From positions 7,256 through 71,255 of the forward strand of contig JAFXVM010000001.1 of the NCBI GenBank assembly GCA_017524525.1: a stretch of 64,000 nucleotides of DNA. The letters are read 5' to 3'. Under the pieces are notes generated by a model that searched no databases, was not told where the DNA came from, and saw only the letters and a list, made by a program, of their open reading frames with translations. This DNA comes from Alphaproteobacteria bacterium (GTDB lineage: Bacteria > Pseudomonadota > Alphaproteobacteria > Rs-D84). A program made the position numbers and the translations under genes. Positions 11,795 to 13,896 of this stretch are shown here, in pieces; within the stretch, counting starts at the first letter, position 1; each line of letters starts with the position of its first letter.

Positions 11795-12622
11795 TTAAGC
11801 AGCATCGTCATCGCATTTGATACGAACAATACCTTCGTTATCAATCAAAACTGCACCCTGAGACATACTGTTGCTGATAAAGTGCGCAGCGCGTTCACCG
11901 TGCCATGTGATATCTGTTTTCACTTCTTGACCACATGCATGACCAATACTGGATGCATGGTACATAAAGCAATCACGGTCATCTCCGCTTGCCAAAGGAA
12001 GCGCGTTGCACAAAATCCAATTAACACCTAACCATTTTCTTGATTCACAACCGTCTACCAAAGGCAAAGAATTGCCAACATAATCAGCAGAAACAAATTC
12101 TGATATTTTTAACAATTCATTCCATTGATGAACACCAACAACTGCGAATCTACGGCCGTCATCTGGCACATCGTTTTCATTTAACTTTTCCAACGCAGCC
12201 ATAATAAGAGCTTTGGTTAAACCTGTGCTGTAATCACCAACATATTGAGTTGCGTTATTCATAGCGCCGATAATTAATTCATCTGTTTTGCGTCCCAAAG
12301 CATAAGCCCCAGCAGATGCAACAACACGACGTTCGTCTACATTGGTTTTCAATTCATCCAATGCATCAACCCAATCGCCAGCATAGTAATCTTGTAATGT
12401 ACATTCTACTGGCGTATGATTCAAATTCATCACAGGAACAATTCCATGACGAGATTTTGTACTGGCGATACCTTTGCCAACTTTTTGGAATGTTGTAGAA
12501 GCGCCAACCACTCCAGATTTGCTGCGAATTGTAGAGCGTAATTTTGTGCCCATTTGTTGATATGCTAAATGCACATCTGCTTCAAATTGTTTTATAAATA
12601 CTTGGTCTACAGACATAGACAT
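11795..12622 (-). CDS. Major capsid protein (HK97-fold type, small)
   Basis: 275 aa. Positioned after the scaffold gene. N-terminal FIKQFEADVHLAYQQMGTKLR pattern is seen in phage capsid families. AAAGGA RBS upstream. Confidence 0.55.
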   Translation of the reverse strand: MSMSVDQVFIKQFEADVHLAYQQMGTKLRSTIRSKSGVVGASTTFQKVGKGIASTKSRHGIVPVMNLNHTPVECTLQDYYAGDWVDALDELKTNVDERRVVASAGAYALGRKTDELIIGAMNNATQYVGDYSTGLTKALIMAALEKLNENDVPDDGRRFAVVGVHQWNELLKISEFVSADYVGNSLPLVDGCESRKWLGVNWILCNALPLASGDDRDCFMYHASSIGHACGQEVKTDITWHGERAAHFISNSMSQGAVLIDNEGIVRIKCDDDAA

Positions 12623-12794
12623 AAGAAATCCTTTTTGTTTAAGTTAACTGTGCCTTGTGGCATGAAAAAATTTTGATTGATGGTTATGCAAATAATGCGC
12701 CATTAAACAAAACATTACACACGGGTCCACAAAAATGGATTATCCAATAAAAAATTCAGTTAGACTTCTATCATCTAACTGAAAAATTTATCAT

Positions 12795-12825
12795 AAAAAA
12801 ATCCCCAAAATCTGCGATTCTGGGG
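12795..12825 (-). terminator. Intrinsic terminator after the K/A-rich gene
   Basis: On the minus strand: CCCCAGAATCGCAGATTTTGGGG hairpin followed by a T-run. Confidence 0.6.
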
Positions 12826-12848
12826 ACAAATAATTGATTAACTATTTA

Positions 12849-13142
12849 TTATTTTTTCTTTACTACTTTTTTAGCAGCTGGTTTTTTTGCAGCAACTTTT
12901 TTTGCAGGTGCTTTTTTAGCAACTGGTTTTTTTGCAACTACTTTTTTAGCAGCTGGTTTTTTTGCAGCAACTTTTTTTGCAGGTGCTTTTTTAGCAACTG
13001 GTTTTTTTGCAACTACTTTTTTAGCAGCTGGTTTTTTTGCAGGTGCTTTTTTAGCAACTGGTTTTTTTGCAGCAGGTTTTTTTGCAGCAGCTGGTTTAGC
13101 AGCTGTTTTTGTGCATCCACATTTTTTCTTTAAGCCGAACAT
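12849..13142 (-). CDS. Lysine/alanine-rich histone-H1-like basic protein
   Basis: 97 aa from ATG 13142, with AAGGAGAG 7 nt upstream. MFGLKKKCGCTKT followed by AKKPAAKK / VAKKPVAKKAPAKK repeats through to the C-terminus. Confidence 0.7.
   Translation of the reverse strand: MFGLKKKCGCTKTAAKPAAAKKPAAKKPVAKKAPAKKPAAKKVVAKKPVAKKAPAKKVAAKKPAAKKVVAKKPVAKKAPAKKVAAKKPAAKKVVKKK
12862..13090. repeat. 75-nt tandem repeat (about 3 copies) inside the K/A-rich gene
   Basis: The string actacttttttagcagctggttttttt recurs at 12862, 12937 and 13012. The period of 75 nt equals 25 codons. Confidence 0.85.
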
Positions 13143-13239
13143 AATTCTCTCCTTTCTATGTTTTCGGATAGAACAAAATTTTTTTGTTCTTGTTTTATAT
13201 TTTATATGAAAGAAAACAAATAGTAAAGAATAAAATGAA

Positions 13240-13896
13240 TTATGAATATAATTTTTTAAAACCATTTTCAATTTTTCTAACATACTCTTCATCATGATCG
13301 CGCCAATATTTTGGATCGCGCATCATATCACGCAGAACATCATCTGTTAAATTTTCTGTCGAACTTTTATTTGTTAAAACATCAGGTTCCATTGATTGCA
13401 TCATCTTGTATATACCTTGTATTCCCTGGGGTGTAGCGCACAATTCATCAAATGCATCTTTTGGTAAATATCTTTCACCAAACGCATTTATTTCACGTAA
13501 AGCATCTTTCATTTTTTCATCATCACCAAAAAAATTTTTCAATTCATTTATAGCATTCGTTTGATTTTGTAATTGAAATAAATTTTTTAATGTTGGTTGT
13601 AAAAATTCTTCTGCGATTGCATAAATTTGTTCAACTTGTTTTGAAGTTAAACCAATTTCATGAAATTTTTCGCGAACCGATTCGTCTTCAAACAAAGGAT
13701 TGATTGGATAATCAGCAGCACTATCTGGGACACCAATTGCATGATTAAACTTTTGTTTTGTTGCATCATCACTATCATCTTTTGGCAAAGATATCATGTT
13801 GCTCATTTTCTTTTCGAGTTCACAATATGATTTTACTAACGCAGATGTATTTAATTCACCTTTGTCATCTAGAAATTTTTCTGGAATTTGTTCCAT
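13240..13896 (-). CDS. Capsid scaffolding/assembly protein
   Basis: 218 aa from ATG 13896 (AAGGAAA RBS). Acidic and helical. MEQIPEKFLDDKGELNTSALVKSYCELEKK resembles podovirus scaffold N-termini. Lies upstream of the capsid gene. Confidence 0.5.
   Translation of the reverse strand: MEQIPEKFLDDKGELNTSALVKSYCELEKKMSNMISLPKDDSDDATKQKFNHAIGVPDSAADYPINPLFEDESVREKFHEIGLTSKQVEQIYAIAEEFLQPTLKNLFQLQNQTNAINELKNFFGDDEKMKDALREINAFGERYLPKDAFDELCATPQGIQGIYKMMQSMEPDVLTNKSSTENLTDDVLRDMMRDPKYWRDHDEEYVRKIENGFKKLYS

Follow-up and report, generated by a model that had tools for sequence, protein, structure and literature searches.

The window analyzed here is a 64,000-nucleotide stretch of DNA from an alphaproteobacterial assembly of 0.965 Mb in 18 contigs. 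Its lysine/alanine (K/A)-rich gene (12849..13142, minus strand) is a 97-aa ORF located between the scaffold and major capsid genes, as the original prediction, which left the strand unstated, had placed it. The upstream neighbor is the scaffold (capsid assembly) gene (13240-13896, minus strand; Pfam T7 capsid assembly, 2e-7), whose product has a net charge of -15. The downstream neighbor is the major capsid gene (11795-12622, minus strand; Pfam Phage_capsid_2, 3e-74; PHROG 3437), and adaptor, nozzle, tail-fiber, and terminase pieces are found farther along the cluster. Genes for a SleB-type hydrolase and a small membrane protein lie upstream, with the K/A gene two genes downstream.

The K/A protein begins with MFGLKKKCGCTKT, continues as AKKPAAKK-type repeats, and ends in KKVVKKK, giving an overall layout of MFGLKKKCGC, (KKxxx)n, and KKVVKKK. 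It contains 38 Lys, 28 Ala, 11 Pro, and 11 Val residues, lacks Asp, Glu, and Arg, and carries a net charge of +38. Tandem Repeats Finder reports a tandem DNA repeat within the gene (12862..13127, minus strand) with a period of 75 nt, 3.6 copies, 88% matches, and sub-periods of 30 and 45 nt, in agreement with the roughly three copies of a 75-nt unit proposed earlier. The basic repeat unit is 15 nt and encodes a near-perfect KKxxx pentapeptide in which the variable residues of K/A proteins are Ala, Pro, or Val. Lysine autocorrelation at lag 5 is 0.95 in the window protein, with a median of 0.90 over 74 orthologues. Several reading frames run open through the repeat on both strands, including a 99-aa plus-strand ORF at 12834-13133, and SCKK-type alternative frames are present in the K/A repeats of relatives.

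The K/A gene is flanked by expression signals on the minus strand. A sigma-70-like promoter, TTTACT-17-TAAAAT (13199..13227), is strongly conserved. It is followed at the start of the predicted transcript by a perfect 9-bp hairpin or palindrome, AGAACAAAA-TTT-TTTTGTTCT (13170..13190). The Shine-Dalgarno sequence AAGGAGAG (13147..13154) lies 4 nt before the ATG and is nearly invariant over 74 loci, which bears out the strong ribosome-binding site first noted. Across 74 aligned upstream regions, the same order recurs: CTTTACT-17-TATAAAAT, the palindrome AAGAACAAA...TTTGTTCT, and then AAGGAGAGAA and the ATG.

Two intrinsic terminators follow the gene on the same strand, where a single one had been expected. 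Terminator 1 (12801..12827) consists of a 12-bp stem and a T-run, and terminator 2 (TTCAGTTAGAT...ATCTAACTGAA; 12755..12783) consists of a stem and a T-run. In the alignment, the stem sequence of terminator 1 changes between species and a GC stem plus T-run is always kept, while terminator 2 shows compensatory changes among relatives (GTTAG/CTAAC, GTCAG/CTGAC, and ACCAG/CTGGT). The region contains seven terminator-like sites versus 2.2 expected. No terminator was detected in the window between the scaffold and K/A genes, and read-through from the scaffold gene would co-express the K/A gene.

The 9-bp hairpin at 13170-13190 is present as the original prediction described it, but it is more than a separator of the K/A and scaffold genes. 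It lies just downstream of the conserved promoter and is therefore a 5′-UTR stem-loop or an operator. As RNA, it has a folding energy of -8.5 kcal/mol (z = -2.6), and it is not a terminator because no U-run follows it. Both arms are invariant throughout the genus, and because they never vary, an RNA role and an operator role are indistinguishable. A regulon was rejected: the genome has no second copy of the exact palindrome, and its other AGAAC-N-GTTCT sites are unrelated. The palindrome was also rejected as an alphaproteobacterial LexA box (GTTC-N7-GTTC), which it does not match, and an Rfam search returned sub-threshold chance matches only.

The interval from terminator 2 to the capsid Shine-Dalgarno sequence (12623-12750) contains a genus-conserved palindrome, TTGGATAATCCA, together with the blocks TGGACCC and GGCGCA-N-TTGCATAACCA. 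A consensus scan found no sigma-70 promoter in this interval. These blocks may therefore act as a regulated promoter or operator belonging to the capsid operon itself.

The K/A ORF is a real gene under protein-level selection, with a phylogenetically limited spread. Candidatus Enterousia is a gut and rumen alphaproteobacterium that has been placed in the reduced-genome order Rs-D84 in a report that leaves phage genes unmentioned (PMC12306168). Of 80 further Candidatus Enterousia loci, 77 carry a K/A orthologue at a distance of 202-256 nt upstream of the capsid gene; the other three are contig ends where less than 332 nt precedes the capsid gene. All 19 first-sampled loci of the same genus also carry the gene where the sequence reaches. 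In a second Rs-D84 family (f3, four genera), the K/A gene follows the scaffold gene in all nine loci and encodes a protein of the form MFKSI[IV]KK...KKKVAKK(K). The position beside the capsid gene has been retained in two families that span about 10 genera. Searching genomes with the K/A protein by HMMER-type methods misses true copies: two genomes that carry the gene (G089 and G104) returned no match. A search for the periodic DNA pattern (AARAAR-N9)x5, which recovers positive controls, was used in its place.

The composition of the K/A protein is stable across widely differing genomes. As third-position GC content (GC3) rises from 0.06 to 0.80 across orthologues, Lys stays at 37-43% and Arg at or below 1%, and the lysine codons move from AAA towards AAG. 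In three f3 genomes with 49-60% GC, the K/A gene has a GC3 of 0.58-0.80 and AAG makes up half or more of its lysine codons, and acidic residues are almost absent from the K/A protein of the high-GC f3 genomes. This constancy despite recoding indicates that selection acts on the protein, and the repeat is therefore not a DNA-level artefact.

The 74 full-length orthologues range from 38 to 164 aa in length and from +16 to +59 in net charge, so that the comparison of repeat copy number proposed earlier was run and the expected variation between strains was found. Near-identical genes at two loci (L057 and L058) are set apart by a cleanly deleted internal stretch of 45 aa, which suggests that copy number changes quickly. 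The ends of the protein vary far less. The reading frame, start codon, Shine-Dalgarno sequence, and N-terminal tag are kept in the 74 full-length orthologues, among which no mid-gene frame switch was found despite many A6-7 runs. Phe and Leu are confined to residues 2-7 (MAFTFLK, MFFGSKK, MFGLKKK, and similar). One to three Cys residues occur in 69 of the 74, within 15 residues of the N-terminal end or 20 residues of the C-terminal end, and one orthologue has an extra internal Cys. Such conserved ends and an elastic middle fit a protein in which bulk charge would be important and the termini would have specific roles.

The cluster that houses the K/A gene is long-kept. Its capsid gene was found in 53 of the 61 relatives sampled from the whole of Rs-D84, so the cluster is an apparently vertically inherited, phage-derived element and not a recent prophage. 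In families f2, f4, and f5, the scaffold and capsid genes are kept with no K/A gene between them, and in two f6 loci, the capsid gene lacks an upstream scaffold gene and the K/A gene is absent there too. The periodic DNA pattern found no K/A gene anywhere in three f2 genomes, one f4 genome, or the genomes G044 and G048. In the capsid tree, Candidatus Enterousia (f1) and f3 are each well supported and the relations between families are unresolved, which leaves one gain versus several losses undecided. No published description of the K/A gene or of the Rs-D84 cluster was found in the literature searched.

The gap between the scaffold and capsid genes is filled differently in each family. In f2 and f4, a membrane gene alone lies between the two, and in f5, the scaffold gene adjoins the capsid gene. 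In f3, a sigma-70-like promoter lies upstream of the K/A gene, which has the same Shine-Dalgarno sequence and no terminator directly after it. A gene for a multi-pass membrane protein of about 186 aa follows, then a terminator, and then the capsid gene. Co-transcription of the f3 K/A gene with the capsid gene was rejected because of the terminator between the membrane and capsid genes. A multi-pass membrane protein of about 186-230 aa, with a basic N-terminus and no Pfam family, fills the scaffold-capsid gap throughout f2, f3, and f4 (L025, L031, L038, and others). Candidatus Enterousia is without this membrane gene, and its gap is reduced to about 220 nt containing terminators and conserved motifs.

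Free phages and IMG/VR relatives with 33-67% capsid identity carry no K/A gene between the scaffold and capsid genes. The relatives compared include Pelagibacter phage Hodr (44% capsid identity), Vibrio phages, a fecal contig (63%), and IMG/VR contigs (59-67%). The scaffold gene adjoins the capsid gene in the phage and IMG/VR relatives examined, with the exception of Hodr, where a single unrelated 191-aa ORF intervenes. A search for K/A ORFs at the same position in related phages, as recommended at the outset, thus returned none among these relatives.

The periodic-pattern search of IMG/VR returned mostly unrelated A-rich DNA among the matches listed. After filtering, the matches listed are K/A tails on peptidoglycan-binding proteins and small N-domain proteins, and the only stand-alone K/A gene among them is one 84-aa ORF with a different repeat pattern (L325). 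Four of the listed IMG/VR loci (L242, L255, L239, and L269) encode either a small protein made of a globular N-domain and a (KKAPA)n tail or a peptidoglycan-binding protein with K/A tails, and the repeats are appendages only among the matches listed. A further set of IMG/VR loci (L168-L210) encodes capsids at 59-63% identity; some of these contigs are about 18 kb long and some come from isolate genomes. GC content is mostly 53-71% in a subset of these contigs, and in the set as a whole the scaffold gene lies just upstream where the sequence suffices. A related podovirus-type element may be widespread in other, probably alphaproteobacterial, hosts.

The K/A gene can be uncoupled from the capsid gene. 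In G033 (L226, G033:C24), everything from the terminase ATPase piece (TerL-N) through the capsid gene has been lost, and the K/A cassette is kept and adjoins a dnaB cassette; its repeats have gained five Glu residues. In G104 (L223, G104:C7), the capsid gene is cut at codon 69 by a deletion that spans capsid codon 70 through the fiber gene, the 153-aa K/A gene is intact, and the upstream hydrolase, membrane, and scaffold genes are intact as well. Both deletions may be recent, and they indicate that the cluster is not untouchable within the genus. In two other f1 genomes (G030 and G111), the capsid and K/A genes are both absent, which fits a particle-linked role and simple co-deletion alike.

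A further uncoupled copy is a look-alike in G040, a member of f5. It encodes 99 aa (MFGKCLKK...KKVVKKAAKKW), has its own promoter and terminator, and lies between a DUF2147 gene and a tRNA-Lys(UUU) gene, beside rpmB and nrdR and 200 kb from the capsid gene. Its assignment as an orthologue is based on 7-8 N-terminal residues and composition. The look-alike (L219 6907-7393; G040:C7 ~235900-236400) is directly upstream of the tRNA-Lys(UUU) gene on the same strand. This placement of a protein with about 40% lysine (AAA codons) beside an AAA-reading tRNA may be coincidence or co-supply.

The K/A protein resembles histone H1-like proteins by repeat pattern only and, as far as profile scores indicate, not by homology. 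With the Pfam HC2 profile (PF07382), for which the gathering score is 40, the window protein reaches 56.5 bits and the reversed sequence 39.9 bits, and three shuffled sequences have no score at all. The score of the reversed sequence indicates that the match reports KKxxx periodicity and not directional homology. The Hc2 profile NF038052 of NCBIfam (cut-off 135 bits) gives 42.2 for the window protein and 30.6 and 49 for two orthologues. The Burkholderiales H1-like profile NF038053 (equivalog cut-off 80) gives 40.5 for the window protein, 49.8-53.2 for orthologues, and 32.9 for the reversed sequence. The winged-helix domain of linker histone H1/H5 is absent, and a Pfam scan gives HC2 and Extensin-type low-complexity matches only. 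The label of a histone-H1-like protein in the original prediction is thus apt for composition and for the pentapeptide pattern, but the NCBIfam scores and the missing globular domain do not support it.

AlphaFold gives the K/A protein a pLDDT of 65, a pTM of 0.12, and no secondary structure. No PHROGs family matches it at E <= 0.01, and a PDB sequence search returned only a low-complexity stretch of SigA (E = 0.003). In a comparison with 5.8 billion proteins, the top scores went to the K/A tails of SWIB/MDM2 and MetJ proteins, which are DNA-associated. A Pfam T7-scaffold match of one high-GC orthologue (27.5 bits versus a cut-off of 27.1) was rejected as low-complexity noise. K/A tails are common in the Rs-D84 proteome, including those on ribosomal proteins S9, L17, and L28 and on TatA-like proteins (L003 (C15), L005 (C14), L045, L216, L221, and L219 8100-8522), and some of these K/A-tailed proteins clearly contact RNA. 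K/A repeats may arise easily in Rs-D84, to judge from how often such tails recur.

By analogy with proteins of similar composition, the K/A protein is probably a nucleic-acid-coating polycation, whether it is cargo of the cluster or linked to the particle. The tentatively preferred reading, which stops short of being probable, is that the K/A gene is moron-type cargo for an intrinsically disordered, DNA-coating polycation that acts in the cell. The gene has its own promoter and terminators and interrupts a gene pair that stands side by side in related phages, as is typical of morons, and these signals and this placement together indicate that it belongs to an insulated cassette between phage-neighbor genes. 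The promoter-gene-terminator cassette would have entered a domesticated T7-like cluster, between its scaffold and capsid genes, in an ancestor shared by some Rs-D84 lineages. The protein would be expressed from its own signals and would act on the cell's DNA (or RNA), without being an obligatory component of a particle.

The polycation consists of a short hydrophobic N-terminal tag (MFxxΦKK), a variable KKxxx run, and, in most orthologues, terminal Cys residues. Its lysines would most likely bind nucleic acid non-specifically and neutralize or compact DNA, by analogy with the histone H1 tail, Hc1/Hc2, Bordetella BpH1, Pseudomonas AlgP, and the K/A tails of SWIB and MetJ. We infer DNA binding and a cellular target for the K/A protein. 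It would be an accessory nucleoid protein, given the four HU/IHF-type genes of the source genome, and because those genes are already there, an extra nucleoid protein is not obviously needed. Three further observations count against the cargo reading: the position beside the capsid gene is kept, no terminator separates the scaffold and K/A genes, and G030 and G111 lack both the capsid and K/A genes. Its support is also limited by the possibly recent date of the G033 and G104 deletions and by the short N-terminal basis for the orthology of the G040 copy.

The same three observations speak for a particle-linked DNA condenser, which is unlikely without being far-fetched and over which a role as cellular cargo is tentatively favored. 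The polycation would be made with the head proteins and either be packaged with DNA, as in a protamine- or adenovirus VII-like arrangement within a head resembling that of a gene transfer agent (GTA), or coat host DNA for headful packaging. The MFxxΦKK tag would dock to the scaffold or capsid protein, and the terminal Cys residues would form cross-links. Within the head module, the gene follows the scaffold gene immediately, and two families keep it there. Its strong Shine-Dalgarno sequence and dedicated promoter suggest high, structural-protein-like output, the hydrophobic N-terminal tag and end-located Cys residues suggest a specific partner, and gain of the gene was restricted to the domesticated lineage, in which host DNA is presumably packaged. 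A protamine-like version, in which the tag targets the K/A protein into a domesticated podovirus-like GTA head or its packaged DNA, where charge would be neutralized and Cys residues cross-linked, is slightly more doubtful again.

Several findings weigh against a link to the particle. The K/A gene is dispensable for the particle, since capsid genes persist without it in f2, f4, f5, two f6 loci, and free phages, all of which except f6 also keep the scaffold gene, and terminators insulate the K/A gene from the capsid gene in f1 and f3. The G040 copy is unlinked, and G033 and G104 retain the K/A gene after capsid loss. The scaffold protein shows no signal as a co-evolving partner, with a net charge per 100 aa of -2.8 to -6.1 in loci with the K/A gene versus -2.7 to -6.7 in loci without it. 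The K/A protein shows no homology to T7-like core or internal proteins among PHROGs (E <= 0.01) and is absent from the head modules of related phages. The suggestion that it is a packaged internal protein replacing missing core proteins finds no positive support, and phages and three sister families do without the gene.

A target other than DNA has a small chance of being correct. The K/A protein would then bind RNA or the ribosome, or it would be an envelope-active lysis helper that displaces divalent cations from the outer membrane once holin and endolysin have done their work, in the manner of cationic phage 'disruptin' peptides or the polycationic tails of endolysins. Similar K/A tails on S9, L17 (L28 in G040), and TatA-like proteins are consistent with such a target, as are the proximity to the SleB-type hydrolase and small membrane protein genes, the pairing of the f3 K/A gene with a multi-pass membrane protein, and the lack of a recognized spanin among the ORFs scanned. 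Against it, Pro occurs every 5-10 residues with no amphipathic pattern, which argues against a membrane-active helix; a signal peptide is absent; the closest compositional matches are tails of DNA-associated proteins; and the K/A gene lies outside the lysis gene pair.

That a slippage-prone, A-rich repeat simply happens to be open and encodes no functional protein has next to no chance of being correct: the repeat is open in several frames on both strands and several related lineages are without the gene, but the frame, start codon, Shine-Dalgarno sequence, and tag are kept in 74 orthologues with no frame switch, composition is constant under recoding, and the gene has a dedicated promoter and covarying terminators. 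The original prediction had taken relatives without the gene and with unchanged flanking genes as a sign of an incidental low-complexity ORF. Such relatives exist, but that conclusion fails because conservation of the protein extends over two families and over GC3 values from 0.06 to 0.80.

The K/A gene would be of wider interest under either leading reading. If its product acts on cell DNA, as the cargo reading holds, a genome of about 0.9 Mb that continues to shrink would be using its domesticated phage cluster as a lasting landing site for a nucleoid protein of benefit to the host. A product that acts inside or on the particle would mean that particles of phage origin can deal with DNA charge in a new manner, and in the protamine-like version, it would be the first histone- or protamine-like packaging aid in a tailed-phage-derived particle. 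In both cases, the orthologues form a compact natural set of (KKxxx)n proteins, 38-164 aa long and conserved at their ends, which suits length and charge tests of DNA compaction. Lys/Ala-repeat "bacterial H1" proteins are known, and to our knowledge none has been described as a fixed passenger in a domesticated phage head module.

Chlamydial Hc2 (HctB) and Hc1 are, like the K/A protein, small and Lys/Ala-rich, with pentapeptide repeats of strain-variable number, and by analogy, the K/A protein would be expected to share their DNA-coating and -condensing role. Unlike these proteins, it comes from an alphaproteobacterium, is encoded inside a phage-derived cluster, and has an N-terminal MFxxΦKK tag and terminal Cys residues. 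BpH1 of Bordetella/Burkholderia, Pseudomonas AlgP, and the tail of mycobacterial HupB/MDP1 share AKKP/KPAA repeats, disorder, and repeat-number polymorphism with the K/A protein, whereas the K/A protein is at most half their length and has no attached domain. BpH1, AlgP, and the C-terminal tail of HupB/MDP1 bind DNA non-specifically. The C-terminal tail of eukaryotic linker histone H1 matches the K/A protein in composition and charge density, but H1 also contains a winged-helix globular domain, which the K/A protein lacks.

Like adenovirus proteins VII and Mu, protamines, and T4 internal proteins, the K/A protein is small and very basic; its gene lies among head genes, and its terminal cysteines recall the cross-links of protamines. 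The likeness is a functional analogy only. These virion-internal proteins are mostly Arg-rich, whereas the K/A protein is essentially Arg-free even at 60% genomic GC and has no PHROGs resemblance to any tailed-phage family.

Phage morons are a parallel for the arrangement of the gene. Like them, the K/A gene has its own sigma-70-like promoter and its own terminators and is absent from related phages. It differs from them in its setting and in its content: the host element is a long-domesticated, apparently vertically inherited cluster in place of a prophage, and the cargo is a K/A-repeat polycation in place of a typical conversion gene.
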